64,000 nt of DNA from Thiohalocapsa sp. PB-PSB1 (GTDB taxonomy: Bacteria; Pseudomonadota; Gammaproteobacteria; Chromatiales; Chromatiaceae), in NCBI GenBank assembly GCA_016745215.1, contig CP050890.1, positions 6,029,455-6,093,454 on the forward strand, read 5' to 3'. The notes beneath the pieces are model-generated. The model did no database searches, had not been told where the DNA came from, and saw nothing but the letters and a program-made list of their open reading frames with translations. Both the position numbers and the translations under genes were made by a program. This document shows, piece by piece, positions 12,082-42,925 of this stretch (its first letter is position 1; each line of letters opens with the position of its first letter).

Positions 12082-12100
12082 GCGAATTCGGTCCTGAGCA

Positions 12101-19993: not shown

Positions 19994-20026
19994 CTTCCGC
20001 TCTCCTTAAGGTTCAGTTGTCAGCGC

Positions 20027-25554: not shown

Positions 25555-25567
25555 GTTCGGATCCCTG

Positions 25568-28500
25568 TTATGATGGCGGGCGCTCGGCCAGATATTGCCG
25601 ATAGGCGCTGCCGATGGACAGCGACGCATCGGGATTGATCAGCTGGGATTTGATCTTGTTGATGGGGCCGCTGAGCGGCTCGATCTGTTCCAACTGGGCA
25701 AGCAGCTCTTGTCGCGGCTCTTCGAGTAGCCCTGCGTGCAACTGCTCGAACGTTTTGATCTGAGCCTGGATTATTTTGTAATGATCGCGTAAGGCCTTCA
25801 GGTCAGTTGGTACCTGATGGCCTGCCGCCAGCCACAGATGACCTTCGTCGGATGCGGACCAAGCATTGATCAGCCCTGACCAGCGGGCACTCTCCCTTGC
25901 CCGCGGCAACTCCCAATCGATCAACGGAATCGCGTGCTCGATCTGCCGCACCCATGAACTGAGTAGATCGATGAAACCGGCCCAGGGTCGCGTCTCGGTA
26001 TGCAACGGAAAAAGTCGGCCGAAGCGGCTGCTGAACGCGGACCATGCGGCCTCCAGATCCTCCCAAGCATCGATGCCTTCTTGTCGGCGTCGAATGGCGT
26101 CGGGCCAAGCCCGCGCGACGCGGATGGCAGGCGCCAGGCGATCAAGTCCGCGCTGCAGTTCTGCCAGTTCGGGGCGCAGGTCCGCGTCCCAAGGGTCGCG
26201 TCGATCGAGATCGCGCAGGGTTCGCTCGACTCCTACCGCTACATCGAGCATCTGCATGGTTTTTTTATCGATCAGGCCGGTCTTGAGCAGTCCCTCGATT
26301 TCTCGATGCAGCTGCACGACCTCGATGTTGCCGTCGGCAAGACGCTTGTCGATGCGAGCGTGTTCGGCGCGCAGCAATCCAGTCACATGGTCGACCGGCG
26401 TTTCCGCGCGACCAGACCAAACCCGCGCCCGCAACTCGTCGGGCAACTGAGCCCACAAGCGCCGGATGTGAAAGTAGTTGTAGGCAGAGCGCGAAAGGTG
26501 TTCGAGTAGACGTCCTAGAAGCGGCTCATCCTCTGGCCTGGGATACCCTTCGATATCCTCGACCAGCGAGGCGTCGTGGAAGCAGTCCAATAAGCTGGCC
26601 AGATAGGATTCGTCTGGAAAGCGTAGCCTGACGATTTTGGCATCGACCGGCTCCGGCATACTGACCATATTGCGCAACAGTTTGAGATAGCGTGTCCGTG
26701 GCTCCGGGTGTCGATGGACCATCAACACATCTTGGAACTCACGGTACAGGGCGAGCCAGTCTTCGTCATCGGCACGCCTGTGGAGCAGGCGTTCGGTCTG
26801 CACCGTTGCCGTCAACTGACGCTGCCCTTCGCGGCCCAGGCAGACGGGGGTATCCGGATGTGCAAGTATCCGCTCTGTCTTTGGCCAGTCCGCGTTCAGG
26901 CATGCACGTTGCACGGCCAGGCCGATCTGGAGCGGCTTCAGGCGCGGCTTGAGCCGATTGGCCTCGACCGGATGCAGCTGCTTGATTGCAAGACCTTCGG
27001 CCAGTGCCTGGACTCGCGCATCTAGGGTGTCGATCAGGTTCTGTTGCGGAAGCGGGAACAGGCTGAACTGCTTCTCGACCTCGGTAAGCTCCTGATCGGC
27101 CTGCGCGATCGCCCGGCGACGAAGGTCGGCCTGGATGCCTTCCAACCGGGCCTGATCGATCTCGATCAGATGGGCATCGTCTGACGGCTGCTCGCTGGCA
27201 AGCTCCATCAGATGTTTTGCGAAGCAGGCAAAGTCAGGGTGCCCTTCGCGTGGGCGGATGCGCTGACGCAAGCCTTCAACGAACTGGCGACCCCGCAGGC
27301 TTAGAAGATAATGCTGTCGGACCTCGTTGCTGGCCTTGTCGAGTTCTTCGGACAGCACGGACTTGAACTCACCCTGCTGAATTGCGCTCAGGATGCGATC
27401 GTCGAGGCTCGCCTGTCGGGCCTTGACCCGGAGTTTGTCAGCGGCATCCGATGTACAGCCATCAAGCGCCGTCAAAGCGGCAGCCGGCTTCGCCTCTGCA
27501 ATCAGCTGCTCGGCCTGGTCGAGGGCCGATAGCTCCTGCTTCAATGCGTCCATTTGATCACGACAGCGCGCATACCCTGGGGAAGCCCCCCAGGCATCGG
27601 TGAGCGCGTTGAGATCGATCTCGACCTTTCGAAGTCGCTCATCGCGCAGGACGAGGGTGTCGCCATCTTGCTGCCAGGCTTTCAGGCTCGACGCGATTTG
27701 GTTCAGGTGTCGGGCATCTTCTTGCAGTGCTCGCAGGGCATCCAATCCGACGTCATACAGCCGCGACAGATGGGGGTGCGCGTCGAGTTCCCGCTTCAGC
27801 GACGGGTAGTCTTGGAAACCGGCCTGCAGCGTAACGATCCATTCCTGGATCTGTGTTTCGATCTTTTTCCTCAGGTTATGCTCTTGTCTGTCCCAGTCGG
27901 CCAGGCCCGGTAACGGACCGAGCTGATCGAGCCATTGGCCGCGCAAGTCGATCATGCATTGCAGAGACTCTCCAAAGTTCTTGTCATCGGACCCGCAGGC
28001 GCCGTCCAACGCGGTCCGACTGAGCCGCTCCAACGATTTTTCCCAAGCATGTAGTTCCGCGTTGCTGCCGTAGGTCTTCATGCCACCCAGGATATCCTCG
28101 ACCTGTTGTGGGGTTACAAAGGAGCCTAAACTCAGCTCATGCAGTTCAAGAGGTGACCAGGGAAAGCGAGGCCGTCCGTCAAATTCGTAGGTGTCGAACT
28201 TCTCCAATATTGCGTTGAAATGCTTCCTCCAACGCCGAAACTGCTGCAGCTCCCCGCGCGCTTCGATGACCGCTTGATCCTGCTCGTTGGATTGCACCAT
28301 AGTCGCGAGTTCGTCCACGGACCGCGCGACAGCATCCCAGGCATCCGTGGTTTTTTGGGAACGGGCGCGCTCCAAATGGGCCGCTAGTTCCAGTTGAGCT
28401 GCATCTGCGATCCAGCTCTTTAGCTTGTTCGTATCGGACGGAAGCATGCGGCCTTGCAGGCCGTTCAGCACGTCGATGAAGAATGCCCTGTGTCTGGCCA

Positions 28501-28918
28501 AAAACTCCGAGCCATGAACGCCTTGGCCAGAGCTCAAATAGTTACCGAAACGCTTGACGAGCACATTGGCAAAGTCAGTCGCCCGTGCCCGAGCATGAGG
28601 AACGGCGACAATCGCCCGAAGCTCGGTTTGCCAGCGCTCATCGTCTGGATTGATCAGTTCCCGAAAGAGGGCGCCTGATGCTTGCCGATCCTGACTCAAA
28701 TGCCGGCCTCGCAACGTCTCAACGCGCATCAGTTCATCAGCGCTGGTCGGTCGTATCGCAGACAAGACGGCCACCGCGTCATCGCGACGCATGTCATGGG
28801 CCTCGCCCAGTATCTCTTCTAGGCGTGAAATGATGTGGTCGGATGACACATCCACTGACAATCCAATGGCTGGCAACAGCTCAGGCGGGACTGTAAGATC
28901 TCGACTATCGTTCGACAT
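25568..28918 (-). CDS. large (1116 aa) predominantly alpha-helical hypothetical protein
   Basis: Long ORF with genic composition and no motif I recognise. Its stop overlaps the next start by ~15 nt. Confidence 0.6.
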   Translation of the reverse strand: MSNDSRDLTVPPELLPAIGLSVDVSSDHIISRLEEILGEAHDMRRDDAVAVLSAIRPTSADELMRVETLRGRHLSQDRQASGALFRELINPDDERWQTELRAIVAVPHARARATDFANVLVKRFGNYLSSGQGVHGSEFLARHRAFFIDVLNGLQGRMLPSDTNKLKSWIADAAQLELAAHLERARSQKTTDAWDAVARSVDELATMVQSNEQDQAVIEARGELQQFRRWRKHFNAILEKFDTYEFDGRPRFPWSPLELHELSLGSFVTPQQVEDILGGMKTYGSNAELHAWEKSLERLSRTALDGACGSDDKNFGESLQCMIDLRGQWLDQLGPLPGLADWDRQEHNLRKKIETQIQEWIVTLQAGFQDYPSLKRELDAHPHLSRLYDVGLDALRALQEDARHLNQIASSLKAWQQDGDTLVLRDERLRKVEIDLNALTDAWGASPGYARCRDQMDALKQELSALDQAEQLIAEAKPAAALTALDGCTSDAADKLRVKARQASLDDRILSAIQQGEFKSVLSEELDKASNEVRQHYLLSLRGRQFVEGLRQRIRPREGHPDFACFAKHLMELASEQPSDDAHLIEIDQARLEGIQADLRRRAIAQADQELTEVEKQFSLFPLPQQNLIDTLDARVQALAEGLAIKQLHPVEANRLKPRLKPLQIGLAVQRACLNADWPKTERILAHPDTPVCLGREGQRQLTATVQTERLLHRRADDEDWLALYREFQDVLMVHRHPEPRTRYLKLLRNMVSMPEPVDAKIVRLRFPDESYLASLLDCFHDASLVEDIEGYPRPEDEPLLGRLLEHLSRSAYNYFHIRRLWAQLPDELRARVWSGRAETPVDHVTGLLRAEHARIDKRLADGNIEVVQLHREIEGLLKTGLIDKKTMQMLDVAVGVERTLRDLDRRDPWDADLRPELAELQRGLDRLAPAIRVARAWPDAIRRRQEGIDAWEDLEAAWSAFSSRFGRLFPLHTETRPWAGFIDLLSSWVRQIEHAIPLIDWELPRARESARWSGLINAWSASDEGHLWLAAGHQVPTDLKALRDHYKIIQAQIKTFEQLHAGLLEEPRQELLAQLEQIEPLSGPINKIKSQLINPDASLSIGSAYRQYLAERPPS

Positions 28919-29104: not shown

Positions 29105-30136
29105 TCAGCGTACCCACACGAAGGGTCCAGGGATAATCAAATACCCACCGGTACCATCCGGGCTGGGAACATGAATGCTCAAATTGTAGAGCCCTGGTGG
29201 GCCAACAAGATCAAGTTGTCCCTCGGCGCGACTCCCGTTTTGGACCAGCGCGGCTGGAACGGCGCCTTGCGGTGGCCGATCGGTAGCCAAATCCGTCTGG
29301 ACGATGGAGGTCGGGAGCGGCTTGCCAGACACAGGATACAAGCTTGTTCGCAAACGCGCCCCAACCGAGGCCTCCTCTGGGATGGGTTTATCCGCAAATG
29401 CGTAGGCGTTGGCGAAAAGCTGCGTGCATTTACGCATTTGGTTTCGGCTAATGCTCGCATCAGCACCTTCTGCACAACCAACCCCCAGGTGTGTGCTATT
29501 TGCGGCCAGGATGTTGCGGCGATGCCCAGGGCTTTCCATCCACATCTGGTTGAATTCGGCAGCTAGTGCGTCATCAGGGATGGACTGAGAGCTATACTCG
29601 GCGACGTTTTCGGAGGTCAAGCCGAACAGCGTCCGGTGCAGTCGCGCTACACGCTGCGCCGGGCCATCGCCATCGGGTGAGTCATGGGACAGGTAGGTCC
29701 GTTCCAGCATGTCCCGGCTGTGCCGTACCGCAATCTCGGCAAGATTGATCTCGTCTAGAAGTTCCGTAAGCGAACGTGAGGCGCGTTCGCCATTCGTCAG
29801 CACAAAAATCTGCTCCGCAACCTGCTGCATGGAGGCTGACATCTGCGCGTATTCGTCTTTGACCCAACGCTCCTCGGAGAGCATGGCCGATGCCGATGCT
29901 AGACTGGCAGGAGGAGCGGGCGGCACGATCACCTGAGGCTGTGATGGCGACGGGGAGGTCCACAAATCATCCGGCTGCGGAACTGCCGCTTGCTCGGCCG
30001 ATGGGCCGAGACCAAATCCGTAATGCAGTAAGAGTAGCAGCGGGGGGCGCAGCAAATAGAATGCTGTGATGAGGATCACAAGCAGAAGCAAAAATACGAA
30101 CAGATCTGAACGTTGATTATCCGTAGACGCATTCAT
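29105..30136 (-). CDS. membrane-anchored CAP/SCP (PR-1-like) domain protein
   Basis: N-terminal TM. Pro-rich linker. CAP motifs VLTNGERASRSL...AVRHSRDMLERTYLSHD...MWMESPGHRRNILAANSTHLGVGC. Confidence 0.65.
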   Translation of the reverse strand: MNASTDNQRSDLFVFLLLLVILITAFYLLRPPLLLLLHYGFGLGPSAEQAAVPQPDDLWTSPSPSQPQVIVPPAPPASLASASAMLSEERWVKDEYAQMSASMQQVAEQIFVLTNGERASRSLTELLDEINLAEIAVRHSRDMLERTYLSHDSPDGDGPAQRVARLHRTLFGLTSENVAEYSSQSIPDDALAAEFNQMWMESPGHRRNILAANSTHLGVGCAEGADASISRNQMRKCTQLFANAYAFADKPIPEEASVGARLRTSLYPVSGKPLPTSIVQTDLATDRPPQGAVPAALVQNGSRAEGQLDLVGPPGLYNLSIHVPSPDGTGGYLIIPGPFVWVR

Positions 30137-30705
30137 TTCTGACGCTCCTGCAGCGCAAATGTCAGCGAGGCGATCCTTAAGATCTGCGACAGGCCTACGT
30201 CCTTGAGGTTCAGACCATGGGCGGTTACTTGGGTGTACAATCCGGTACCTTTCACGTATTGTTCGGTCTCGCAGTCACCTGACTGAGATAGCATCCTCAG
30301 AAAACCGCAAGGCGCTGATCTGGAAAACAAATGCAGCATGGCATGGTCACCCTTGAACTGCCTGAACGGCTCAGGCCTGAAACCGAACAGATCGAACCGA
30401 ACAGGTCGAATTCCCTAGTCGCATGCAACTTGTCATCACAAAGATCCAGGTGCAGTTCCGCCTCGAGGGGTGTTTCGAAGTTCATCGTTATTGAATGACC
30501 TTCTTACGACTATGGATGTGATTATGTACGATGATTACGGTTATTGCAATTTTGGGTGAGAATGAGTCGTTTGCGGTATAGCGTTTGCCCCGGCCCTTCG
30601 GTGGGCAAAACGCGCATGGGCAAAGTCGCGAAAGATATTCGTGAAGCCATACGTTGGCCCAAGAGATAACGGAATTGGGTCGGCGACCTCTGGTCTGAGA
30701 TTGGT

Positions 30706-30757
30706 GGTTAGCTGAAATTTCCTGACTCTCGATCTGGCGATAAACCAGGTAGGAGCC
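30706..30757. repeat. direct-repeat copy 1 of a ~50-bp motif in the AT-rich intergenic region
   Basis: ctgaaatttcctgactctcg...ccaggtaggagc. A second copy lies ~490 bp away at ~31195-31243 (ctgaagtttcctgattctcg...ccaggtaggggc). Confidence 0.5.
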
Positions 30758-31417
30758 TTCTCAACAGGTGTTGCTCGGATCCGTGTTTGGTGACAATGAA
30801 TTTGACTGGTCAGCGGTAACTATAGATTTTCAGAAAATGACTCTGGCATACAGACCCAAAATGATCTTTCAAAATCAACGAATCGCGATTATGTAGATCC
30901 AAGACTATATCTTGGCCGCTTGCAGAAAGCTAAAGCGATTTCTGTCGAGAAACGTACCATCTGGCTATATGGCTTGTCTGCTCGTCCACCTTCTTTGTCA
31001 CGGCAACCCGCCCCTAGAGCGACCATGGGTGGGTTGTCGAACTGTGAAGGCGAACGAGAATCCGACGCCAGTTGGTATGTTTCTCTCCGGCAATCGCATA
31101 AGACGTCGAACACGCCAAACAGGCGCCTGAAAAAGTCGTTTATTGGATCGAGCAGCATGGTCATGGTTTGAACATAATGCAGGGTCAGAGTACCAGTCTG
31201 AAGTTTCCTGATTCTCGGGCTGGGTGGCGGGCCAGGTAGGGGCATTATTATTCGGGTTTGCTTGCGCCTGCGCAAACCAGCGTAAACATGCCACCACCAA
31301 GTAACTGTCCTCCTTGCGATTTTCAGAAATCAGAAAACTTCAGTATTAGTAATTATGGACGCGAAAACGCTGCCAGAGACGGTCCAGACCATTAGCGCCA
31401 CCGCCTTGGCGCCTCGC

Positions 31418-32584
31418 TCAACCACCATGTTCACCATGAGGAGAGTCGCCCTGGTTCCGGTCCGGATCTTCGTTGATCCTAGGAACCGAAGCGTTGAATC
31501 CAACTTGCGCCGTTGGTTGCGTCGGCGGGCCGAGCAAAGTCGCCAGAAAAGCCTGGTCTGAGATCGCAGAGCGGGTATCCGGTCCATTCAAGGATTCTTT
31601 TAGTGCGTCGGCATACTTGTCCTTGAGCTCAAGAATGTACACATCCTCGAGCTCGGCCCGTTGGGCACGTTCTAGGGCATCTTCGATAGTCGTCAGCCGA
31701 TCTTTCGGCTGCAACTCTGCCTTCCTGGTCTCGAAGGCTACCGCAAGCGCATCCATCGCCTCTTGCCACGGCCGGGAGTAGAAGTTCTCCAGCAGCCGCA
31801 TGTCCAGGAATCGGGCAACATCGCGCACCTTGTAGGGGGCATAGGTCTGGTCGACTTCCAGCAGCCGATCTGTCTTGCTACGATCAAGTATACCTCCCTC
31901 CCCAAATACCTTATCGCGGAGCCGCCGAAGATGATCGGTCAGCTCTGTGCTGGGTTCGATGAGGACGCTGACTCTATCGATTTTGACGCCTGGTACGGTT
32001 GCATGCTGATGGACATGCGTCTCCAGTCCGTTTTTGACGAGCGTAAGGGCGCGATCGAAGATACGGTCTACGAGGCCGCGTTCGACATGGGAAGCGTCTT
32101 CTAGTAAGCGATCGCTGGTCAGCCCGGTAAAATATTCTCGGGTCGTCGCGACGACTCTGGCGCGTAGGCTCGCAACCGGATCCTTACTGCCATTCCAGAA
32201 TTGCTCCGCATCCGTGACGCGCCACTCCAAGGTCAAACGGCAATCCACATCGTTACCGTCCGCAAGGCGGTATGTCTCTGAGTCGGCAGAAATCTCCAGC
32301 GTCCGCTGGCGCATCTCGACAAAGATGAACAGCATACGATCAGCGTCTTGCGCAGCGACGTGAATCGACGGACGATCAGTGGTCAAAGCGGCGACGAAGA
32401 CAGGTGCATCGCCGACGACCTCCATGACGATAATGTGCCGGTCCGCGTCCGCGCGCGGCACCGGCGGCAGCGCGCGCCGGAAGGTCGGCAGCCGGCGCTT
32501 GATGCTGTATTCCGCCTCAGAGTAGACCTCCGACCGGTAGGTCTCGGTAGCGCGCAGTTTTTGCAGCCAGTCTTCAAGCAACAT
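31418..32584 (-). CDS. hypothetical protein with SPFH/band-7-like core
   Basis: 388 aa. The segment DVDCRLTLEWRVTDAEQFW...SLRARVVATTREYFTGLTSDRLLE...GVKIDRVSVLIEPSTEL follows the SPFH consensus pattern. Confidence 0.4.
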   Translation of the reverse strand: MLLEDWLQKLRATETYRSEVYSEAEYSIKRRLPTFRRALPPVPRADADRHIIVMEVVGDAPVFVAALTTDRPSIHVAAQDADRMLFIFVEMRQRTLEISADSETYRLADGNDVDCRLTLEWRVTDAEQFWNGSKDPVASLRARVVATTREYFTGLTSDRLLEDASHVERGLVDRIFDRALTLVKNGLETHVHQHATVPGVKIDRVSVLIEPSTELTDHLRRLRDKVFGEGGILDRSKTDRLLEVDQTYAPYKVRDVARFLDMRLLENFYSRPWQEAMDALAVAFETRKAELQPKDRLTTIEDALERAQRAELEDVYILELKDKYADALKESLNGPDTRSAISDQAFLATLLGPPTQPTAQVGFNASVPRINEDPDRNQGDSPHGEHGG

Positions 32585-32638
32585 GGCAAACCTCTCGGAC
32601 AGTTCAGGGATTAGGGAAGATGTCGGTATTTGGCAACG

Positions 32639-33799
32639 TCAATCCGGCGTCAATAATTCGCGGTAGGATCGGCAAGGTATATTGGATTGAGCATCTCCGC
32701 CACGGCTGGATGCACGCCTCTGTGCGGCCCGATCTCGTAGCCGATCCCAGCGCTCGATATGAAAGCGCAAGCGATCGCGCCGCTGGCCTAGATAGCGCAT
32801 CTGCAATGCAAGAAAAAACTGCCGGTAAGGGTCGAACAGCGCCGGTCGCTCCTGGTCCAGCAGAGCCAACGCACGTTCGGCCCAGCCTTTGACCTTTTCC
32901 GTGGTTTGTTCTTGTACGATCACATGCAATGGCAGGCGTGAGTCGTCCCATAGGGTGCCGACCAGCTCCACCGCAGCCGAGCGCATGTCTTCGCTGTCGA
33001 CGGCATCCTCGATTCGTAAAAATTCAAGCGTGAGCAAAGCAGACAACAGGCGTAGCGGAGCGTCTCTGTCGGGCTCGATCCAAAGCAGCAACGCCCTGAG
33101 GCCACGCTTTGGATCGGCGTCAAAGATTCGGCGGAACAGCTCTGTGATCGGCAACAATAGCAACCACATCCACTCGGTAGTCGTCGTCACCTCGATCAAG
33201 TGCAGCGCAGCGTCGCTTCGCACACTGTTGTAGCGCCAGGTCAGTGCACCTAACGCCACCCTTATAAGAACCGGGTTGTCAGACTTGGCCCAATGGCGGA
33301 TTAGGGCGAGGATGTCGGCTTCGCACCGCCCCGCTATCAAGGTCTCAGCCAGTGCGATGGCAGCCGAGTCCATGCAGTCGGCATTGTTGGAATTGACCCA
33401 AGGCAGAAGAATTCGAGCCTTGAGGTCGGCGAACGGCAACTGCTTTGCCAGTACGCTTACGGCAAGAGCCGCGAAGTATCTTGGCTCACGCTCGCCGCCG
33501 CAGCCCATTTGGCACAGGTAGTCATATAACCTCGGCAGTCGATCGTACAGGGCGGGCAGGTTCAGCAGACCAAGTGCCGCCGATCGTTCTTTCTCTGTTG
33601 CGAAACCAAGAGACTGAACTTGCGTAACCCCATGCTCGGTGTTTCGCGATACCTCAATGATGTTGGCGCCAGTACGCGCAAGTGCGTGGAAATCGCCGCC
33701 TTGTTGTTGTGAATCTGCTTCGTTTTTGCCGTCTTTGCGCAACAGCGAGGCTGGGACATCAATTACCAAGCGGTCGGTTTCGTCATCTCTCGCCGTCAT
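32639..33799 (-). CDS. hypothetical helical-repeat (HEAT/ARM-like) protein
   Basis: 386-aa ORF. Its stop overlaps the next start. Confidence 0.45.
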   Translation of the reverse strand: MTARDDETDRLVIDVPASLLRKDGKNEADSQQQGGDFHALARTGANIIEVSRNTEHGVTQVQSLGFATEKERSAALGLLNLPALYDRLPRLYDYLCQMGCGGEREPRYFAALAVSVLAKQLPFADLKARILLPWVNSNNADCMDSAAIALAETLIAGRCEADILALIRHWAKSDNPVLIRVALGALTWRYNSVRSDAALHLIEVTTTTEWMWLLLLPITELFRRIFDADPKRGLRALLLWIEPDRDAPLRLLSALLTLEFLRIEDAVDSEDMRSAAVELVGTLWDDSRLPLHVIVQEQTTEKVKGWAERALALLDQERPALFDPYRQFFLALQMRYLGQRRDRLRFHIERWDRLRDRAAQRRASSRGGDAQSNIPCRSYRELLTPD

Positions 33800-34548
33800 T
33801 CCGGGCTGCTCCTGTCATCGGAGGTTTGATCACTTGCAGGATCGAGCAGCTTTTCGAAATCACGAGCGACCCCGACCAGGTAGGTCCGATTCATCTCTTG
33901 GAACAGCGCGGTCGCCAGCACGTTGCCGCGTTCTAGAGGGTTCAAATCGTTGAAGAACCAGTCGCTTACATTCTCGGCATTGTCGCTCGACAGCGGATGC
34001 TCCGTTGATGTCTGCCCGACGTTCTGCCGCGCGGGCGATGCCGCAGCACGAAACTCGGCGTATTCTGCCTCGCGGGAATCGCGGTTTTTCTTGCAGGCTT
34101 CCGACCAACGCGGAAACCATTCGTCGTATTTCGGTTTGCTCTCGCTGGCCAACCAGTCCCAGAGCTGAGGAACCCGATCGCGACTCTCGCAGTAGGAGAT
34201 CAACTCACGAAGGATACCGAAAAAACGATCCGTCTCCTTGAGCAGTTTGTGGACATCGTCAAAGTGCTCGAAGCAATAGGTGCGCAGGGCTTCCTCGTTA
34301 TGGAATGCACTGGAGAAGCACTCCAGCAAGACTGCTCTTGGGGACTCCTGGCCTCGACGTCTTGCGTCTCGGATCTTCGCTTCTTCGTCGTCAGTTTTCT
34401 CAGCGCGAGGGGTTGTTGAGGCTTCTGCGGATTGATCTGGTGGAGTCTTACTGGCCCTGGCGGTATCCGGGTCTTGTGCGTCAGCAGCGACTGTCTCAGC
34501 AACACTGTCGGGAGCCTCGGTGGATGTCTCTTCGAGATCGTTGGTCAT
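33796..34548 (-). CDS. acidic protein carrying a ~60-aa helical module homologous to the C-terminus of the upstream nucleosidase-like protein
   Basis: RAVLLECFSSAFHNEEALRTYCFEHFDDVHKLLKETDRFFGILRELISYCESRDRVPQLWDWL aligns with the upstream protein's C-terminal module. Start MTNDLEET forms an ATGA overlap with the upstream stop. The ORF in the track extends to 34767. Confidence 0.6.
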   Translation of the reverse strand: MTNDLEETSTEAPDSVAETVAADAQDPDTARASKTPPDQSAEASTTPRAEKTDDEEAKIRDARRRGQESPRAVLLECFSSAFHNEEALRTYCFEHFDDVHKLLKETDRFFGILRELISYCESRDRVPQLWDWLASESKPKYDEWFPRWSEACKKNRDSREAEYAEFRAAASPARQNVGQTSTEHPLSSDNAENVSDWFFNDLNPLERGNVLATALFQEMNRTYLVGVARDFEKLLDPASDQTSDDRSSPE

Positions 34549-35582
34549 CGGCCCATCTCTTGATATTTGGCGACGCAAGCATAGCTGCGCATTTGCAGCA
34601 GTTGCCATAGGGCGTCGGTCTGCGCCCGAGCAAGAACGTAGCCGATCAATTCGCGGGTGATGTGCGGCCGGCGGTCTATCTCGCGCAGGTTGCGATACAC
34701 CTCGGGGAAGTGCTCGAAGCAGAAGGCTCGCAGCTCGTCCTCGGTCGTCAATACGGTATCGATACACTCGAACAGAAGTTGCCGTTCCGATCGCCCATTC
34801 CCTCGTTGGGCTTGCTGATCATTGACTTCGGACTCCCCGTTACCGGATGACATGGGCATAAAGGACATCGCATGGACAACAAAGCCTGCCGCATTGCGCG
34901 CTGCGATCATCTGACGGGTATCCTTGTCCACCGCCTTGTTGCCATCGGCAAAGTCGCAGATAGCCTTGACGACGATCCAGTCCACCTTGGCGTCCGTGCA
35001 TGCGACATAGAGCCCGGCGCCCTCCATCTCGCCACCGATGATGTCGGGGGAGAATTGCAACAGCTGCGCGCGGTAGGCGCTGTTGTCCACCAACTTCTCA
35101 CCCGAAAGCATCAGGCCGAAATCGATGCGCGCCTCGTCCTGCGGCCAGGTCAAGGCGGCGTTGCGCAGGGCGTTGATCAGGCGGGTCGAGGCATGGGGGC
35201 GGTCGCCCCGCGCGACTTGCTGGCGTTCGCCGATCCGCTGCGCCTCGTAGAGCAACAATTGCAGCGATACCAGCAGGTCGCCGATCTGCTGCTTACCCTC
35301 GTCGACGCCAAAGGCGATACCGGCGAGGACGACCGCGGCCGGTGAGAGCGCCGCGATGGCTTTCTGTACGCTCACCAGCGAAGAACCGAGCCCCAAGGCG
35401 CCCATCTCGCAGAGCACGAGCATGGCGTGCCGGTCGGCGACATGGCCCAGGTCATGGTAGACTCGATCACCCGCCGGAACAGGTTGGGCCGGTTGCCCGC
35501 TGTGCTGCGCGAAGGCGCTGAGCATAGCGCGACTCTCCACCTCGGTGGCGGTAACGATCAGAATATCGGTCTGTGGCGACAT
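34545..35582 (-). CDS. purine-nucleoside-phosphorylase / MTA-SAH-nucleosidase-family enzyme with C-terminal effector-associated-type helical domain
   Basis: MSPQTDILIVTATEVESRAM ... IIGGEMEGAGLYVAC is the PNP/UDP-phosphorylase family hallmark. C-terminal module LLFECIDTVLTTEDELRAFCFEHFPEVYRNLREIDRRPHITRELIGYVLARAQTDALWQLL. The ORF in the track extends to 35948. Confidence 0.7.
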   Translation of the reverse strand: MSPQTDILIVTATEVESRAMLSAFAQHSGQPAQPVPAGDRVYHDLGHVADRHAMLVLCEMGALGLGSSLVSVQKAIAALSPAAVVLAGIAFGVDEGKQQIGDLLVSLQLLLYEAQRIGERQQVARGDRPHASTRLINALRNAALTWPQDEARIDFGLMLSGEKLVDNSAYRAQLLQFSPDIIGGEMEGAGLYVACTDAKVDWIVVKAICDFADGNKAVDKDTRQMIAARNAAGFVVHAMSFMPMSSGNGESEVNDQQAQRGNGRSERQLLFECIDTVLTTEDELRAFCFEHFPEVYRNLREIDRRPHITRELIGYVLARAQTDALWQLLQMRSYACVAKYQEMGR

Positions 35583-36712
35583 GGCACTCTCCAGGTCAGG
35601 ACGGGATGATGATCTTGGGCACTCGCAAGCACCGCTGCGGTTGTTTGTGTAGAGGGCGGCATTAGCGCCATCTGGAGAACCGACAGCACGAGCCACATAG
35701 CCCCTAGTCCGGCTCCCAATAGTAGACCTGTGCCCGCGCAGCGTCGTCGCGACATACGGAGCGCGCGGCGTTCCAGCGCTAGCCAGACGATAAGCCCGAT
35801 TCCGAGCAGACCGACCAGCCCCCACAACGTGGCCATGATCGCGCCGACCAATGCCACAGCCACCAGGCGCACGAGGTCGCCGACAGTCATTGCCCCGGTA
35901 TTGCCGGGGCGCGGGGCGATTATCGCAAGGTGCGCGATCAGGCCGCACTGGAGGAGCAGCAGTCCCACCGCGCTCGTGCCGTTGGCAATCATCGGTTGCC
36001 AGAACATCAGCACAAAGAAGCCCATTACCCAGGCACCGGAGAAGGTCAACTCTGCCGACGCCTTGGACCGATCTTGAACCTGCTCCAACAGTGCGGCCAT
36101 CGTGATGGCCAATAGGAACCAGGCACAGATGATGAAACCGCGCACGCCGAACTCGGCCACCAGCGGTTCATTGGCTGATGGCTCCGGGACCAGCAGCCAG
36201 GCGTTCGGATGTGCCAGCAGCATGCCCCAGAGATACAGCAGGGGCAGGGTCAGCAACAGCCGCGGCCAAGCCGCCTGGCGGTGCACCAGAAACAACAGCA
36301 GCATTGCCCCGCAGATGAAGATGCGCATCACCTGCCAGAAGCCTGCGTCGCCGGTGGCGAGGAATGCGCTGAATAGGTTCTGCCAAAGGTGTTCGCCCGG
36401 GGCGTAGACTGCCGCCCGTCCGCCAGTGTACAGCCAATACTCGAACAAATGCAGGAACAGATACACGGCCATCACCACCAGTGCCACATGGCTGGCTGCC
36501 GCGACTGGTACCCGGTTGATCCGCAGCAACAGGTACAGGCCGTAGTGCAGACTGATGTAGAACACCTGGGTCTCGATTACCGCGAGCGGCGTGACCCGCG
36601 TGTAACCGTCGAGGGGGAAGCGCGCCAGATCCAATGCGAAGCGCAGCGACAGCAGTATTACGAAGGTCGCGTAGTCGGTGACTACCGGCGGTAATCGTCG
36701 AGGCTCGGCCAT
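35558..36712 (-). CDS. polytopic integral membrane protein (about 10 TM)
   Basis: 384 aa with many hydrophobic helices. Its 3' end overlaps the start of the nucleosidase-like gene by ~25 nt. Confidence 0.6.
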   Translation of the reverse strand: MAEPRRLPPVVTDYATFVILLSLRFALDLARFPLDGYTRVTPLAVIETQVFYISLHYGLYLLLRINRVPVAAASHVALVVMAVYLFLHLFEYWLYTGGRAAVYAPGEHLWQNLFSAFLATGDAGFWQVMRIFICGAMLLLFLVHRQAAWPRLLLTLPLLYLWGMLLAHPNAWLLVPEPSANEPLVAEFGVRGFIICAWFLLAITMAALLEQVQDRSKASAELTFSGAWVMGFFVLMFWQPMIANGTSAVGLLLLQCGLIAHLAIIAPRPGNTGAMTVGDLVRLVAVALVGAIMATLWGLVGLLGIGLIVWLALERRALRMSRRRCAGTGLLLGAGLGAMWLVLSVLQMALMPPSTQTTAAVLASAQDHHPVLTWRVPCRHRPIF

Positions 36713-38991
36713 TGGACTTTCGCTTGTAAGCTGATGCGTTTGTCGTCTGATTGCCAGGTGTCGATCCGCAATAGCTCCAGCAGGGGTACTATATATTGGT
36801 CGTCAGCGCTATTCCCATTGCCAACGAACGTGCGCCACAAACCCTGCGCAAATTCCAGAACATTGGATTTATCCGAGGCATTGCCTTGGCTGAAGGTAGC
36901 AGAGTCGTCACTCTGGCTGAGTCCATCTAAGGTAGTGGTTGCGTCTATACGGGATTCTGAAGATTCATGCCGCGGGATTGGCCTTGATGAGGGATGGCGA
37001 GACAGCCGCACACAAACAATAGCACCTTCGAACGGCGCAAACCCACCTCGGCGTACACACCGCCCCGACCCTTGGAGAATGCCTATCTCGGCACTTGCTC
37101 CAACTGCGTTTTGCACGACAACTACATTAACCATATCTTTATCTGTCTTCAATTGCCCGAGCAGCTCTTCACTATCAATGCCAGCCCTTTTGGTCATCTC
37201 GGTAGCCGGAGCCATATCCTGCCGATAGGCATCGACGGCCTGCTCGAAAGCAGCCAGGTTTTGCGCCGTTGGACGCTGTTTCAGTGCCTGATAAACCGCC
37301 TTTAATTTCTTGTGCGCGTCTGATTCGAACTGGAGCACGGCAGTTTCAATGATGCTTGCGAGATCTTCTTTGCGCTCGTTCGGGTAGCGCGTGCGGAAAT
37401 TTCCCAGCAGCTGCCGAAGCTTATCCATGCCCGCGCGATCCAGTGAACCGACCCGCTCGGTCGTAGTCCGCAGTTTTTGCAATGCCTCTTGCTGCTCCAG
37501 CGCACGCACTTGCGCCTCAATATCGGCCAAATACGGGTTCCGCGGCAGGCTGTTATCCGCTTCATCAAGCCGCAGCCAGGCATAGCGCTCCCGAAGAGCC
37601 TGGGAGGTATCTGCGGCACCCACCCACTGCGCCACCTGTTGATAAAGACGATCTGAGGCGGCCAAAAACCTGTCGTTATCACTGGAATTCAGCAATTGCG
37701 GCATGGCTACGAGGGCAAGTAGATCCGCATTGAGACGATTGGTATCTTTAACATCGGTTTCGCTCGACGCCAGCTTCCCGTCAATCACCGCCAAACGCGA
37801 GCGGTATAGGTTGATCAGGGTTGCGCTACGCGCTGTGAGGTCTATACAGACCTGTTCGTCGGGATCTCGTTTACGCAGCTCGTCCGCACGTTGCAGCAAC
37901 GTACGCGTATCATCGAGACGGGTTTGCGAATTGTCAAAATCCTGCGACCAGGCGATGCAAGCCTTCTCAAGCTGTGTGTGGCGCCAAACACGTGGAACAA
38001 GCAAGATGCCCGTGGCGACGACCAAGGCCAAACCGATCCCCAACCATAGCTTGAGCTTGTTCGCTTTGCGTTGTTTAGGGTCGCCGATTGTGATTGGTTT
38101 TTGCGCTGAAGTTTGATCCACGGGCGTAGCCGCGGGCGCGGGTGCAGGTGTCTGTGCGGAGGGGATTTCCAGGGAGCGAGATGTCCAATTCGCGTCCCAA
38201 CAGCCGTTGATCAACTTGGCTGTATTGAGCCGATCTTCGCGTAAGCTCGTGCTCGCCGCTCCTCGATCAGATATCGAGAGTGTTGAGCCACGGGCGATGT
38301 CGATCCGCTCTTGGAAGATCTGCTTGAGTCTAAATGGTCCGCAAACACAGGAGGTCGATCCTCGCCGCTGATGGGGTAAACTCAGGAGCAGCAGCTCATA
38401 GAACTGAGGAGGGATCTCTGCGGGCAACCGAATGGGCGGTATGCCTTGCCAAATCTCGGCAAGTTGGAGGCGCCAAGGTTCCGATATCTGCGATACATCC
38501 TTGTCTTGATCCGGCTGGTCAAGCTCAGGTTCATTTGCCCCGAATTGATCGAAGTCCGGCAGGGCTGTCGCTGAGAATTCCGCGGCGTTTTTCACCAGAT
38601 GCGGCAGTCGGAAAGGGTTGAAGTCGAGCGCCTGCCATTGCTCCGCGGTCAGCAGCACCGCGTGTCCGGTGCGCGAGACCCGTCCGCCAGAGGCCCAGTT
38701 GAAGTAGACCCGGCAGATCAGATGTATGTAGCGCAGTCCATCGAAATCGGGCGAATCGGTCAGCGGCAGGCTGATGACGCCGACCTCGTCTCGCCAATCG
38801 CCATTCTGCCAGTCGCGGCAGCGTTCCCGAACGCGCTCGAAATCCGGCTCTGCCTCTTCCGCTGATTGCACCCATTTCGGCAGCCACTCATCGAGCCACT
38901 CCTTCAACGGGCTCGCGGCGGCAGGGAAGATACGGCTCTCGTTGACCTGACGCAGCTCGCCGAACAGATAGTGTAGGTAGCTGTTGGGCAT
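36682..38991 (-). CDS. hypothetical single-TM protein (769 aa)
   Basis: Central TM LWLGIGLALVVATGILLV. The C-terminal half is a long helical region. Overlaps neighbours on both sides. Confidence 0.55.
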   Translation of the reverse strand: MPNSYLHYLFGELRQVNESRIFPAAASPLKEWLDEWLPKWVQSAEEAEPDFERVRERCRDWQNGDWRDEVGVISLPLTDSPDFDGLRYIHLICRVYFNWASGGRVSRTGHAVLLTAEQWQALDFNPFRLPHLVKNAAEFSATALPDFDQFGANEPELDQPDQDKDVSQISEPWRLQLAEIWQGIPPIRLPAEIPPQFYELLLLSLPHQRRGSTSCVCGPFRLKQIFQERIDIARGSTLSISDRGAASTSLREDRLNTAKLINGCWDANWTSRSLEIPSAQTPAPAPAATPVDQTSAQKPITIGDPKQRKANKLKLWLGIGLALVVATGILLVPRVWRHTQLEKACIAWSQDFDNSQTRLDDTRTLLQRADELRKRDPDEQVCIDLTARSATLINLYRSRLAVIDGKLASSETDVKDTNRLNADLLALVAMPQLLNSSDNDRFLAASDRLYQQVAQWVGAADTSQALRERYAWLRLDEADNSLPRNPYLADIEAQVRALEQQEALQKLRTTTERVGSLDRAGMDKLRQLLGNFRTRYPNERKEDLASIIETAVLQFESDAHKKLKAVYQALKQRPTAQNLAAFEQAVDAYRQDMAPATEMTKRAGIDSEELLGQLKTDKDMVNVVVVQNAVGASAEIGILQGSGRCVRRGGFAPFEGAIVCVRLSRHPSSRPIPRHESSESRIDATTTLDGLSQSDDSATFSQGNASDKSNVLEFAQGLWRTFVGNGNSADDQYIVPLLELLRIDTWQSDDKRISLQAKVQWPSLDDYRR

Positions 38992-41456
38992 TATTGTCTC
39001 CCGGCGGACGGTGGGTCCGGTGGTGTCAGATCCTTCGGATCGAACGGCAGCGGCGGCAACTCAAGCCCCTTTAAGCGCGCGCTGGCCGTTGCATTGCTCA
39101 GCCCTGATGTTGCAACGTTAAGCAGCGCGTGGACCGAGCTGTTGGCAAGCGTCGTACTTTGGCCGGAGGTTTCATTGCTGATGTGCAGTTCGACAGGGTT
39201 GCCCGGTTCCCACCAGAGGCTGTCCACCGCCAAGCGTGGCAAAAAACCCGAGTAGGACGAGTTGGCCATGATCTGACCGCCAATGATCAGAGTCAGAGTA
39301 CCCGACGGCTTGACAGAGTTTTTGTAGTAGCAGGTCTCGGGATTGTATGAGCTGCCGCAGTCGTAGGGCCGTCGATCGATTCGAATGAATGGCTCGGCGT
39401 CCTTGATCGAGACCTTGATGCCGTCCAGCCGATAGGTTCGGCTCAGTTGCTGATGCCAATACATGAATTGTTCGGCCCTATCCCAGTAGACTGGCGAGTG
39501 ATTGGACACTTCCACCTGTCGTTCTCGTGCATGTTTGAGGTAGGTTTCTACGCTTTGGACCAGCTCAGGAGTCACGCTCGCAGGGCCGTCGAGCCGACTC
39601 AGGTCCTGGTAGAGCTTGTTCGCTTCCTCGAAATCCCAGCGATCTCCGGCCTTGGTCAGATCGGCACAGAATTCCGGGCGCAATGTCTCTTCGGTACAGA
39701 TTAAACAAGCCTGAGCCAGAGACTCGAACTGGGCGTCTCGCTGATCCGGATTCTGCTTGGCGATGCGCTGGTATTGATCAAAAAGTAGATCGCATCGGCC
39801 ACGATCATCTGCAGCAAGTCCTGCCGCGAGCTGGGTCCGATCGACGCCAATGCCGGCAACTTGCAGCGCCTTCAGAACGGTCAGATAGGACTCGACTTGT
39901 TTTGTGGCTAATGCCTCGGGGATGCCTTGCGTTTTCGCCAGTCGCCAGATCGCGTCGATGGCCTGGACCAGAAACTCTGCTCGCGCAGGGCCGTAGTCCA
40001 CTAATAGGCGCATGACATCGCCCGCACCTTCCGGAAGCTGCTCGAAACGCTCGCGGGTGGACTGAATCCGCGTGGCCAAGTCCTGCCATTCGCGGTCTCG
40101 CTCGGCGAGCTTGTCCATCATCACACTGAAGTCGCTTTGGCGTCGGAGCAGCGTGAACAGGTCCGCAGTTTCCGCCTGCAAATTCTCTAACCTATTTTCG
40201 AGGGTTTGCAGCGTGAAGCGGCGCTCGATCAACCAGGCCTGCCGCGCTTCCACTAAGTCAGGAAAATTGCCGAATGGGATAGGCCGGTCTGCAAGAAAAG
40301 CGAATGGATGGCCGATGCTCAATGCCTGCCGCGCCTGCTCAAGAACGGTCGTGGCCTGAACCGATCCGGCTTGCTGATCATAGGCCGCAGCCTGCTCCTT
40401 GACCGCATCAATGGTGCGTCGGTCCCGATCGATTCCCACGAGCACGATGATGGCGAGCAGCACAACGCCCAAGGCATAGGGCGCGGCCTTGAGTGCTGCA
40501 ACCTTGACTTCTTGCTGCTGTTGCATGCGTATCGCGGCATACATGCCGGTTTCCAAGGTTTCGGCGACACCAAGTGGCATCCAGTCCGCGAACCGATTGA
40601 TGACGAAGGCGGGCTCGCCCTCAGGGCCGGATTTCTGCTTTGGTGCGGCGCCGAGTGCTGCCACGTAGCACACCCGAACACAGGATCTTCGGCGGCTGGC
40701 CAGGAGCACATCTGCCAGTGTCCCCGCATTTTGACGATACAGAAAGTCACGAAAGACTTCCTTACCCTGCTTGATTGCCTCGGCACTGCGATTGTTGAGC
40801 TGCTCGATCTCTTCTTTGATTTCGGATGACGAATTTCCGGCGTACAGCAGATCTGCCTTGGTGACGACGATGACAATGGGCCAGCCTGGTCGGGATTCCG
40901 TAAAGGCTTGATAGGCACGCTGAATCGCTTCGCCTTGCCCCTGGTGGCGCCCAGCGGACAGATCGTCTTGATCTGGGCCACGATGCAGGCTGGCATCGAA
41001 AAACAGATACAAGCAGTCGCTGCGCTTGATGTGCTCCTGGAGTTGAAGCTGTGCGTCCTCCATCTTCTGGATGGCAGCGAGCTCGCCTGTATAGTCGAAG
41101 GTCGTACAATCGAACGGTTGCTTACCAGCAAACTCAAGCGCAAGGTGAATTCGCAGCCATTCGTTGTGCTGTGTCTTTGGGACATAAGCTTCGTCCCGCA
41201 GCAGATCGATGCGCGAGAGTCCGCGGTCATCGACCGGGTGCGAGAAAAAAGATACTTCCCCTTTGAGAAGCTTCTCGGTAACACCGAGCGCACGGCCGGA
41301 AATACCGGATCGTAAGCGGCCGAAACGGGAGGCCAGCAAGGCCGTGGTCAGAAAGGTGCTCTTGCCGGATGCCTGGTAGCCGAGGAAAGTTGCCTTGATC
41401 TCGCGTGTTAAAGGCTTGGCTGGTTCGGATGCGAGTGTTGCAGAGTCTCTGGTCAT
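38991..41456 (-). CDS. membrane-anchored P-loop GTPase (821 aa)
   Basis: G1 FLGYQASGKSTF, G3 DYTGE, G4 VVTKADL. TM YALGVVLLAIIVLVGI. A ~470-aa C-terminal helical region. Confidence 0.65.
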   Translation of the reverse strand: MTRDSATLASEPAKPLTREIKATFLGYQASGKSTFLTTALLASRFGRLRSGISGRALGVTEKLLKGEVSFFSHPVDDRGLSRIDLLRDEAYVPKTQHNEWLRIHLALEFAGKQPFDCTTFDYTGELAAIQKMEDAQLQLQEHIKRSDCLYLFFDASLHRGPDQDDLSAGRHQGQGEAIQRAYQAFTESRPGWPIVIVVTKADLLYAGNSSSEIKEEIEQLNNRSAEAIKQGKEVFRDFLYRQNAGTLADVLLASRRRSCVRVCYVAALGAAPKQKSGPEGEPAFVINRFADWMPLGVAETLETGMYAAIRMQQQQEVKVAALKAAPYALGVVLLAIIVLVGIDRDRRTIDAVKEQAAAYDQQAGSVQATTVLEQARQALSIGHPFAFLADRPIPFGNFPDLVEARQAWLIERRFTLQTLENRLENLQAETADLFTLLRRQSDFSVMMDKLAERDREWQDLATRIQSTRERFEQLPEGAGDVMRLLVDYGPARAEFLVQAIDAIWRLAKTQGIPEALATKQVESYLTVLKALQVAGIGVDRTQLAAGLAADDRGRCDLLFDQYQRIAKQNPDQRDAQFESLAQACLICTEETLRPEFCADLTKAGDRWDFEEANKLYQDLSRLDGPASVTPELVQSVETYLKHARERQVEVSNHSPVYWDRAEQFMYWHQQLSRTYRLDGIKVSIKDAEPFIRIDRRPYDCGSSYNPETCYYKNSVKPSGTLTLIIGGQIMANSSYSGFLPRLAVDSLWWEPGNPVELHISNETSGQSTTLANSSVHALLNVATSGLSNATASARLKGLELPPLPFDPKDLTPPDPPSAGRQ

Positions 41457-41569: not shown

Positions 41570-41899
41570 CTACCGCGTGGCCTCCTCCTCTGTTTTCGCG
41601 AGATACCCTGGGTTGAGCAGGATGATATTGGGCCGACGCCAATCACGGGTGGACCTGCACCAACGCTCCGGGTGTCGATTTCGGGCGGCGGCGTAGAGCT
41701 GCTCGCGCTGCGCAAGGATCGCGGCATCCTCGCTGCAGTGGTATTGGCCGGGAGTGACGAACTTCAAGGCGCTGTGGTGGTGGACCTCGTTATACCAATG
41801 CACGAACGTCTGCACCCATGCGCGTGCCATATCCAGGCTCTTGACGCATCTTCCTGGCAAAGATGTAAACATTCGGCCTACCATCTCTCGAAAAATCAA
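41570..41899 (-). pseudogene. C-terminal fragment of an integrase-core (rve, IS3/IS481-like) transposase
   Basis: 109 aa containing AWVQTFVHWYNEVHHHSALKFVTPGQYH. No upstream catalytic domain is present. Confidence 0.6.
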
Positions 41900-42785: not shown

Positions 42786-42925
42786 GGGCCTTGTTCATAA
42801 CTCCGACCAACTGACGAGCGGGTGCATTGGCTTTTCCATAAAGCATTGGTTTTAAAGTAAAAATACTGGAGCGTTCGAGGCTAACCTTAGGTCTTGGCCG
42901 AGCTTATGAACAAGGCCAGCAATGG
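42786..42925. mobile_element. ~140-bp MITE inserted at the 3' end of patatin copy 1
   Basis: Inverted ends ggccttgttcataa / ttatgaacaaggcc flanked by agcaatgg on both sides. The intact paralog at ~48180 reads straight through (gagcaatggacgcagctcgg). Confidence 0.7.

Follow-up and report, generated by a model that had tools for sequence, protein, structure and literature searches.

The window analyzed here is a 64,000-nucleotide stretch of the Thiohalocapsa sp. PB-PSB1 genome (contig CP050890.1, positions 6,029,455 to 6,093,454), and the positions given below are counted from its first letter. Between 41456 and 31418 it carries seven minus-strand genes designated G1 to G7, of which G4 and G5 are genes A and B of a preliminary description of this DNA. 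The first three genes encode a membrane GTPase and two further membrane proteins. The last four probably constitute a conflict cassette, in which a nucleosidase would be docked by a small helical domain, EAD7, onto a non-enzymatic core. G4 (34545..35582; ATG at 35582, stop at 34545) encodes a 345-residue nucleosidase with a purine nucleoside phosphorylase (PNPase)/MTAN fold, made up of a PNP_UDP_1 catalytic domain (residues 7-237; 34872..35564) and a C-terminal EAD7 domain (residues 270-333 by Pfam; 34584..34775). G5 (33796..34548; ATG at 34548, stop at 33796) encodes a 250-residue EAD7 adaptor, whose EAD7 domain (residues 74-136 by Pfam; 34141..34329) is also supported by BLASTP against G4, by an alignment of homologues and by a profile scan. 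G6 (32639..33799) encodes a 386-residue HEAT-like alpha-solenoid protein (Pfam DNA_alkylation, E 7e-7), and G7 (31418..32584), the last gene of the cassette, encodes a 388-residue SPFH/Band-7-like protein (Pfam Band_7).

The genes from G1 to G6 are joined by start/stop overlaps, of 1 nt between G1 and G2, 31 nt between G2 and G3, and 25 nt between G3 and G4. The ATGA coupling noted in the preliminary description was borne out at two junctions, namely the G4 stop and G5 start (...GGCCGATGACC...) and the G5 stop and G6 start at 33799 (...GGAATGACG...). A scan for promoters and terminators was uninformative, the sites found being no commoner than in shuffled sequence.

The nucleosidase G4 and the EAD7 domain shared with G5

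Comparison of G4 and G5 by BLASTP aligned residues 240-343 of the former with residues 44-144 of the latter (37 of 104 identical, E 4e-17), a similarity far beyond chance. Pfam recognized EAD7 (PF19960) in G4 with an E-value of 5e-17 and 61.8 bits against a cut-off of 32, and in G5 with an E-value of 2.3e-6 and 27.7 bits, slightly under that cut-off. An EAD7 profile scanned against all six frames of the window found these two copies only (E 7e-35 and 7e-33), the next-best match lying at E 1.5. On these matches the module can be assigned to EAD7 in both proteins, the sub-cut-off Pfam score of G5 notwithstanding. The two genes had been placed at exactly these coordinates in the preliminary description, and its reference to homotypic effector-recruitment domains from the Aravind group was apt, the module being the EAD7 defined in Kaur et al. 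2020 (PMC7159879). The domain is all-alpha, with six helices in about 65 residues; it is C-terminal in G4 and follows a disordered N-terminal tail in G5.

A profile built from 15 EAD7 sequences was searched against 1.84 billion cluster representatives. At E <= 1e-3 it matched 838 proteins, of which 68 reached E <= 1e-10. Pfam called EAD7 in 42 of the 53 long proteins matched. The other domains found on the long EAD7 proteins were TIR, Trypsin_2, FGE-sulfatase, nSTAND1, TCAD9, AAA_16 and WD40, with LRR-Roc-COR, CHAT, SIR2, PNP_UDP_1 and EAD11 as further partners. By its scarcity and these conflict-type architectures EAD7 is a rare, conflict-specific domain and not a generic one. A generic helix-turn-helix-like domain, the objection that the preliminary description had raised to its own proposal, was ruled out as the identity of the module on its Pfam assignment and on the small size and conflict-specific character of the EAD7 family.

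The EAD7 of G4 was modeled with AlphaFold2 from a 15-sequence alignment, and the model comprised six helices with a predicted local distance difference test score (pLDDT) of 94.4 and a predicted template modeling score (pTM) of 0.82. The model superimposed on CARD, PYD, DED and DD folds, including the bacterial structures 8ss1 and 9frr, and its structural neighbors included ICEBERG and cPOP1, regulators that consist of a Death fold only. EAD7 is predicted, with very high confidence, to be a Death-like six-helix bundle. The AlphaFold2 model of full-length G5 had a pLDDT of 61, with low confidence outside EAD7 and values of 72-85 within it, and Foldseek searches with this lower-confidence model returned CARD matches at E 2-10 only, which are not significant. 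At the level of sequences and profiles a link of EAD7 to Death-superfamily families was not detectable, and Pfam gave EAD7 alone on the region. A search of a viral structure library found no EAD7-like fold at a meaningful E-value and hence no candidate phage decoy.

The preliminary description had placed G4 in the PNP/MTA-nucleosidase family on its GGEMEGAG motif, and this held, Pfam matching PNP_UDP_1 at residues 7-237 with an E-value of 1.5e-13. The best solved relatives of the domain are methylthioadenosine/S-adenosylhomocysteine (MTA/SAH) nucleosidases, at E-values down to 2.4e-9. In an alignment to the MTAN structure 3eei, the EME of G4 fell on the EME of the chain and the ICDFAD of G4 on its VSDSAD, Asp on Asp; we take these acidic residues to correspond to Glu174 and Asp197 of E. 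coli MtnN. Among close homologues of G4 the GGEMEG motif was conserved in 119 of 120, and ICD[FW]ADG in all 16 that were inspected. Judged by these alignments, the catalytic acidic motifs of G4 are intact. The protein nonetheless scored only 67.2 bits against the MtnN equivalog NF004079 (cut-off 169) and 27.8 bits against TIGR01704 (cut-off 73.8), and it was below cut-off for every other housekeeping equivalog of NCBIfam too. Housekeeping MtnN was ruled out as the identity of G4 by this equivalog shortfall of more than 100 bits together with the mobile context of the cassette.

Hundreds of PNP domains that are 55-63% identical to that of G4 are fused to EAD7, EAD1, TIR, NACHT, AAA_16/STAND or TPR domains. 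PADLOC matched the G4 PNP domain to the 'Effector PN-superfamily' model (E 4.6e-15, residues 158-233) of the cyclic oligonucleotide-based antiphage signaling system (CBASS) and to PDC-M60C models; a PDC-M60 system was ruled out as the identity of the locus, as PADLOC matched no other gene to it. Apart from the EAD7 group, the PNP domains nearest to that of G4 are those of proteins P0025-P0028 (58-63% identity), which carry Pfam PF20690 where EAD7 would be; PF20690 may be another adaptor in the same position. The immune PNP domains of Cap17, DtcC and fungal and sponge proteins cleave ATP/dATP to adenine and are toxic (Rousset et al., 10.1101/2023.01.24.525353), and by analogy G4 would most likely act in the same way on adenine nucleotides, with ATP/dATP as the substrate.

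The core proteins, related loci and the membrane trio

Alignment of 10 homologues divided G5 into a disordered acidic N-terminus, EAD7, a long helix with a YxEWFPRW motif, and a conserved C-terminal segment (residues ~184-235; 33844..33999). The last contains the helical motif HPLS..(V/I)..WFF..L....VL..ALF.G.NR, and H184, P185, L186, W197, F198, L202, L211, A214, F216 and R221 are invariant in all 10. When a profile of this segment was run on the 150 best-scoring EAD7 representatives, about 40 were recovered. In six representatives (P0228, P0179, P0174, P0214, P0197 and P0249) a G5-like and a G6-like protein are fused colinearly into a chain of 570-760 residues, and the G5 C-terminal motif runs straight into the HEAT-like region. 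These six fusions indicate that EAD7 belongs to the core protein and that G5 is its detached N-terminal part; by this comparison G5 and G6 are the split form of one EAD7-HEAT-like protein. The preliminary description had called the neighbor of the enzyme a scaffold protein; G5 is not a scaffold that stands by itself. The split is no sequencing artefact, as it is kept in eight loci.

G6, which is ATGA-coupled to G5 and has orthologues in all related loci, gave weak profile matches to the AP-2 beta solenoid. G7 matched Band_7 at 27.4 bits (cut-off 23.6), a partial match over profile positions 36-126 of 176. In its family, 6 of 10 members match Band_7 and no other family, and no sequence relative of G7 was found in the PDB. 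A G7-like gene always came next after the G6-like gene in the loci examined, and also followed each fused core. We infer that G7 multimerizes into a platform.

The G4-G7 block is kept in seven further lineages. All seven genes occur in the same order in a Lamprocystis metagenome-assembled genome (L002) and in L006, at 50-70% identity and with unrelated flanks, and from these flanks the unit can be delimited as 41456..31418, with the downstream tubulin/vWA genes outside it. Four other loci (L014, L015, L016 and L019) contain G4-G7 without any NTPase, and here the identities are 47-57% for G4, about 26% over the full length of G5, about 37% for G6 and about 33% for G7. L015 and L019 adjoin ParA/ParB/KorA/RadC mobile-element genes. 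Because the quartet is found without the GTPase, G4-G7 make up an autonomous cassette for which an NTPase is not required. The conflict-system setting put forward in the preliminary description therefore stands, whereas its 'NTPase-centred' character is not essential.

The partner encoded upstream of the fused cores varies. It is Trypco1 with a Trypsin_2-EAD7 protein in L020, a TIR-TCAD9-APH-EAD7 protein in L021, and in L022/L023 a WD40-TCAD9 protein (cluster representative P0177), which has a C-terminal EAD7 by our custom profile but none by Pfam at E <= 1e-4. Between the effector and fused-core genes of L020 lie a 39-residue EAD7 fragment (4947-5066) and a 114-residue SPFH fragment (5375-5719), the latter corresponding to the last third of the SPFH-like protein. 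The two fragments appear to be what recombination or effector exchange left of an earlier copy of the cassette.

The cassette system is rare. A G6-pattern search gave one match among 185,579 GTDB species representatives, a scan of genome contigs with the G6 alignment found the Lamprocystis locus only, and a metagenome scan found 2 loci. No G6 relative was found among PLSDB plasmids, where the PNP relatives occur in fusions with HNH or NACHT domains and are unrelated to the cassette.

Upstream of the quartet, G1 (38991..41456) encodes an 821-residue membrane-anchored TRAFAC GTPase of DO-GTPase-like type, with a GTPase domain at about residues 20-313, a transmembrane (TM) segment at 324-342 and a C-terminal region of about 480 residues. 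Its match to Pfam DO-GTPase2 is borderline (27.6 bits against a cut-off of 27, E 2.9e-6), and its homologues fall under the Pfam cut-off, P0011 at 21 bits and P0014, a DO-GTPase1 match, at 26.1 bits. The protein contains a GYQASGKST Walker A motif, a DYTGE Walker B motif with Glu, and TKAD; G26-T34, D121, G124, E125 and T199-A201 are invariant in six G1 homologues. G2 (36682..38991) encodes a 769-residue single-pass membrane protein with a strongly conserved N-terminal domain of about 300 residues and a TM segment at 315-333. G3 (35558..36712) encodes a 384-residue polytopic membrane protein, in which a hydropathy scan showed about 6-7 hydrophobic segments. G1 is conserved together with G2 and G3 in L002, L006 and L007; the G2 orthologues, 35-50% identical, always come right after G1, and the G3 orthologues of these loci are 55-67% identical.

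Neither G2 nor G3 gave a match in Pfam, NCBIfam or PADLOC, and no PDB sequence relative of G2 was found. The idea of G2 as a degenerate second GTPase was rejected (hhalign probability 0.7% against G1). Pfam gave no GAP1 match at E <= 0.1 in G2, in any cassette protein or in the L007 homologues, and G2 was accordingly rejected as a GAP1 protein, although a very divergent GAP1 is still conceivable. Neither did Pfam match GASH, FNIII or GAAD domains in the cassette, where no second GTPase paralogue was seen. For want of GAP1, GASH, FNIII, GAAD and a second GTPase, the locus was not filed as a DO-GTPase/GAP1 system, to which it appears related through the GTPase only.

The trio occurs without the quartet in L007-L009 (G1 49%, G2 35% and G3 55% identical), where G4-G7 give way to genes for a membrane protein with a zinc ribbon, for Trypco1, for a trypsin and for an ATPase of STAND-like type. 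In L007 these genes (17434-22232) encode a 413-residue zinc-ribbon/multi-TM protein, Trypco1, a 457-residue trypsin whose C-terminal region is P-loop-like, and a 1021-residue STAND-like protein with TM and AAA_16; none of the four has EAD7. A GTPase domain of the G1 type (60% identity to residues 20-313; window 40518-41399) lies inside the 1284-residue protein P0013 (L010, 10001-13855), which ends in an FGE-sulfatase (FGS) domain and whose gene comes directly after VMAP-C/caspase and MoxR-like AAA_5 genes. Its presence inside a protein of a VMAP/MoxR ternary locus makes the GTPase domain a mobile module that is shared with VMAP ternary systems, and puts it in the same network of effector and domain sharing.

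Downstream of the unit, and separated from it by an ORF-poor gap of 1.3 kb (30137-31417; ORF, open reading frame), the window has a minus-strand gene (29105-30136) for a 343-residue protein with a CAP (cysteine-rich secretory protein family) domain, whose N-terminus is hydrophobic and which has a proline-rich linker. The GC content of the block 30001-32000 is 0.518, against 0.57-0.61 nearby. A run of giant minus-strand genes occupies 4661-28918. It contains two vWA+Tubulin_2 proteins (12101-16039, 1312 residues; 16079-19993, 1304 residues), a Tubulin_2 protein (20027-23218, 1063 residues), a vWA protein (23284-25629, 781 residues), two proteins without a real Pfam match (7039-12567, 1842 residues; 25568-28918, 1116 residues) and one with only weak, sub-cut-off Pfam matches of coiled-coil type (4661-7042, 793 residues). 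The run resembles the tubulin/vWA theme of GAP1-N2 DO-GTPase systems, which was described as restricted to Firmicutes and Actinobacteria (Kaur et al. 2020), yet this is a Chromatiaceae genome and no GAP1 was seen. In L002 and L006 the cassette comes without a tubulin/vWA run, and the unrelated flanks there led us to reject the giant tubulin/vWA genes (12-26 kb) as members of the system. Transposase genes bracket the variable region, namely a DDE_Tnp_1_6 element (369-1907, plus strand), an rve fragment immediately upstream of G1 (41570-41899, minus strand) and an IS4/5-family DDE transposase (44079-44909, minus strand), and a patatin-like phospholipase gene (42887-43792, minus strand) adjoins the transposase genes. 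Beyond about 52 kb the genes are ordinary ones of metabolism and signaling (fumarate reductase/succinate dehydrogenase flavoprotein, phytochrome, Fis-family regulator).

Proposed mechanism and alternative explanations

The findings described above, on homology and domain identities, on gene order and fusions, on the swapping of partners and on the predicted fold, make it probable that G4-G7 are an EAD-coupled conflict cassette, with the nucleosidase docked through EAD7 on a platform of G5+G6 and G7. Its role is most likely abortive infection directed against phages or mobile elements. What we propose as to the binding of EAD7 to EAD7, the substrate, the trigger, the defense phenotype and any cooperation of the trio with the quartet goes beyond these findings and is inferred. 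In this mechanism G5+G6, as the EAD7-HEAT-like protein, would form a constant platform with the SPFH-like G7. Since G4 and G5 carry the same EAD7 and the two copies are predicted to bind each other, the enzyme would be docked on the core through the contact of G4-EAD7 with G5-EAD7. Sensing of the trigger would fall to the HEAT-like/SPFH core, and the membrane trio G1-G3 of this genome may also sense or gate, with the DO-GTPase-like GTPase as the switch. Clustering or release mediated by EAD7 would activate the nucleosidase, and activated G4 would then cleave adenine nucleotides, most likely ATP/dATP, leading to growth arrest of the infected cell.

Several observations weigh against this reading. 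The physical binding of the two EAD7s is itself a prediction, and the copies in the window are only 40% identical, each being nearer to its own orthologues (64-67% between the G4 copy and G4-type orthologues, 51% between the G5 copy and its G5-type counterparts) than to its neighbor. The PNPase is the partner in all eight loci with split G5/G6, and variation of the partner is seen beside fused cores only. The WD40-TCAD9 protein is without an obvious toxic domain, which suggests that the EAD7-tagged protein may not always be an effector. PADLOC recognizes the PNP domain alone, leaving the other six proteins unmatched, and the PNP domain of G4 scores 67 bits against the MtnN model and 53 against the CBASS PN-effector model. 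Finally, trio and quartet each occur alone, and their cooperation is suggested by the operon fusion only.

The comparison of EAD7 copies across loci bears on the predicted pairing. In the EAD scheme of Kaur et al. 2020, neighboring copies are often more similar to each other than to any further copy. The window, L002, L006, L014 and L016 depart from this, their effector-type and core-type EAD7s falling into two distinct orthologous groups. In L015, by contrast, the neighboring EAD7s are 77% identical to each other, against at most 45% to any other copy, and in L019 the effector bears a partner-type EAD7. The PNPase clade comprising L015, L019, P0021, P0023 and P0024 bears the core-type EAD7 including the YxxYYPxW helix that follows it. 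The homogenization in L015 and the core-type EAD7 of this clade point to at least one replacement or conversion of the effector adaptor by that of the partner. Such a replacement is what would be expected if the two EAD7s must match.

It is also conceivable, though we think it doubtful, that the trio and the quartet are independent systems lying side by side in a variable island. The occurrence of the trio alone in L007-L009 and of the quartet alone in L014-L016 and L019 is compatible with this, and G1-G3 have neither EAD7 nor any other domain in common with G4-G7. The G3 stop and G4 start, however, overlap by 25 nt, and the seven genes are contiguous and in the same order in three lineages at 50-70% identity with unrelated flanks.

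An unlikely alternative casts G5 as a decoy or inhibitor, whose EAD7 would cap that of G4 and hold the nucleosidase monomeric and inactive until the trigger, in the manner of an antitoxin; CARD-only and PYD-only proteins and the DtcB 'buffer' of Detocs offer likenesses. G5 has no enzymatic domain and is translationally coupled right after a toxin-like gene, isolated immune PNP domains are toxic and a cognate restraint would be expected, and ICEBERG and cPOP1 are among the structural neighbors of EAD7. On the other hand, six other clusters have G5 and the HEAT-like protein joined in a single chain, and the conserved C-terminal motif of G5 continues into the HEAT-like protein, so that the adaptor arm of a larger core fits better. 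The roles of inhibitor and adaptor are not mutually exclusive.

We consider it quite unlikely that the PNPase is instead a signal generator, the base or phosphoribosyl product of which would serve as a second messenger for another component, as Kaur et al. 2020 (PMC7159879) proposed for PNPase domains of VMAP systems. Having no obvious enzymatic role, the HEAT-like and SPFH-like proteins could be downstream responders, and a WD40-TCAD9 protein of signaling type takes the same position in some loci. The immune PNP domains that have been characterized by experiment, however, deplete ATP/dATP and are toxic alone, Pfam and PADLOC recognized no SLATT, SAVED, CARF or cNMP-binding domain in the cassette, and Kaur et al. 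2020 grouped EAD7 with the effector-recruiting EADs. That G4 might be an ordinary housekeeping MTA/SAH nucleosidase with an incidental generic helical domain, a possibility raised in the preliminary description and suggested by its best solved relatives and best NCBIfam model, is scarcely credible given the equivalog scores, the flanks that differ from genome to genome and sometimes hold ParA/ParB elements, the fusion of the closest PNP domains to TIR, NACHT, STAND and EAD domains, and the identity of the helical segment as EAD7, found in 838 of 1.84e9 representatives.

Comparison with known systems

The effector-associated domains (EADs) are small non-enzymatic domains, one copy of which is found on a core component and another on an effector encoded by an adjacent gene, and they were proposed to couple core and effector by homotypic contacts (Kaur et al. 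2020, PMC7159879). In the same work EAD7 was placed among those that 'primarily recruit other effectors', and PNPase was described as a recurrent nucleotide-directed effector (PMC7159879). The present locus corresponds to these systems in the domain itself, in having a copy on a non-enzymatic core and another on the enzyme of the adjacent gene, in its effector vocabulary of PNPase, TIR, trypsin and TCAD9, and in the association of one core with varied EAD-tagged domains (PNPase in 8 loci, others in L020, L021 and L022/L023). Both the docking principle and the EAD7 family have been published, and the locus is an instance of that principle. The published EAD-bearing cores are VMAP, iSTAND, Ubl, GAP1, TRADD-N and STAND-FGS proteins, whereas the core found here consists of an EAD7-HEAT-like protein, split or fused, and an SPFH-like protein, with no NTPase in four loci.

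We tentatively suggest that this is a new NTPase-free core, composed of an EAD7-HEAT-like scaffold and an SPFH-like protein with interchangeable EAD7-tagged partners (an ATP-nucleosidase-like PNPase, trypsin with Trypco1, a TIR-kinase or a WD40-kinase), which was captured by a GAP1-less GTPase trio in purple sulfur bacteria. No published description of the EAD7-HEAT-like/SPFH-like core was found in the main texts of the two papers by Kaur et al. or in the literature searched, though the full source tables of Kaur et al. may catalogue it, nor was one found of the NTPase-independent four-gene form, of the split and fused variants, or of the coupling to a DO-GTPase-like trio lacking GAP1. The supplement text of Kaur et al. 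2020 makes no mention of EAD7, DO-GTPase2 or Chromatiaceae, and a search of the literature for SPFH together with anti-phage defense found nothing relevant. The homotypic docking of EADs is an idea that rests almost wholly on comparative genomics, and the locus offers a compact test case for it, with four genes (seven with the trio), a plausible activity that is easily assayed (adenine from ATP) and a confidently predicted adaptor fold. Natural controls exist in the split and fused cores and in the swapped partners. As the system is rare, its practical value is modest.

The locus resembles the DO-GTPase/GAP1 systems in its membrane-anchored TRAFAC GTPase, G1, which has the Walker-B Glu and a borderline match to DO-GTPase2 and is encoded beside other TM proteins, and EAD-coupled PNPase effectors have been described for the GAP1-N1 type (Kaur et al. 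2020). Unlike those systems, it has no detectable GAP1 (N1, N2, M or C), GASH, FNIII or GAAD domain, it lacks a second GTPase paralogue, its G1 bears no zinc ribbon, and the GAP1 proteins carry EAD1, whereas here EAD7 is carried by a HEAT-like protein.

G4 resembles Cap17 of CBASS and DtcC of Detocs in its PNP_UDP_1 fold, its acidic catalytic motif and its place in a multi-gene operon of defense type; in addition, NLR/Avs-type and TIR domains occur in fusion with its close relatives, and PADLOC matches it to the CBASS PN-effector. In Cap17 the activating element is a cyclic-nucleotide sensor and in DtcC a phospho-receiver, whereas G4 would be activated by a Death-fold-like adaptor. MtnN is similar to G4 in fold and catalytic motif (EME ... 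SD/CD) and provides its best PDB sequence matches, but G4 is more than 100 bits under the equivalog cut-off, has the extra EAD7, occurs in a mobile context and has relatives fused to immune domains.

Most EADs were noted, in general terms only, to show 'structural parallels' to the Death-like superfamily (Kaur et al. 2021). With the bacterial CARD and Death-like domains (bDLDs; Kaur et al. 2021; Wein et al. 2023), EAD7 shares the six-helix bundle, by a match of its predicted structure, and, as in the gasdermin and CARD-NLR systems, it has a terminal position on effectors and a presumed homotypic pairing. If the tentative reading as a new NTPase-free core is true, the four genes would amount to a minimal bacterial analogue of effector assembly nucleated by Death folds, in which a nucleotide-depleting enzyme takes the place of the caspase. 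Should EAD7 bind EAD7 and thereby activate the nucleosidase, the CARD/PYD logic of the animal inflammasome would extend to a bacterial nucleotide-depletion effector.

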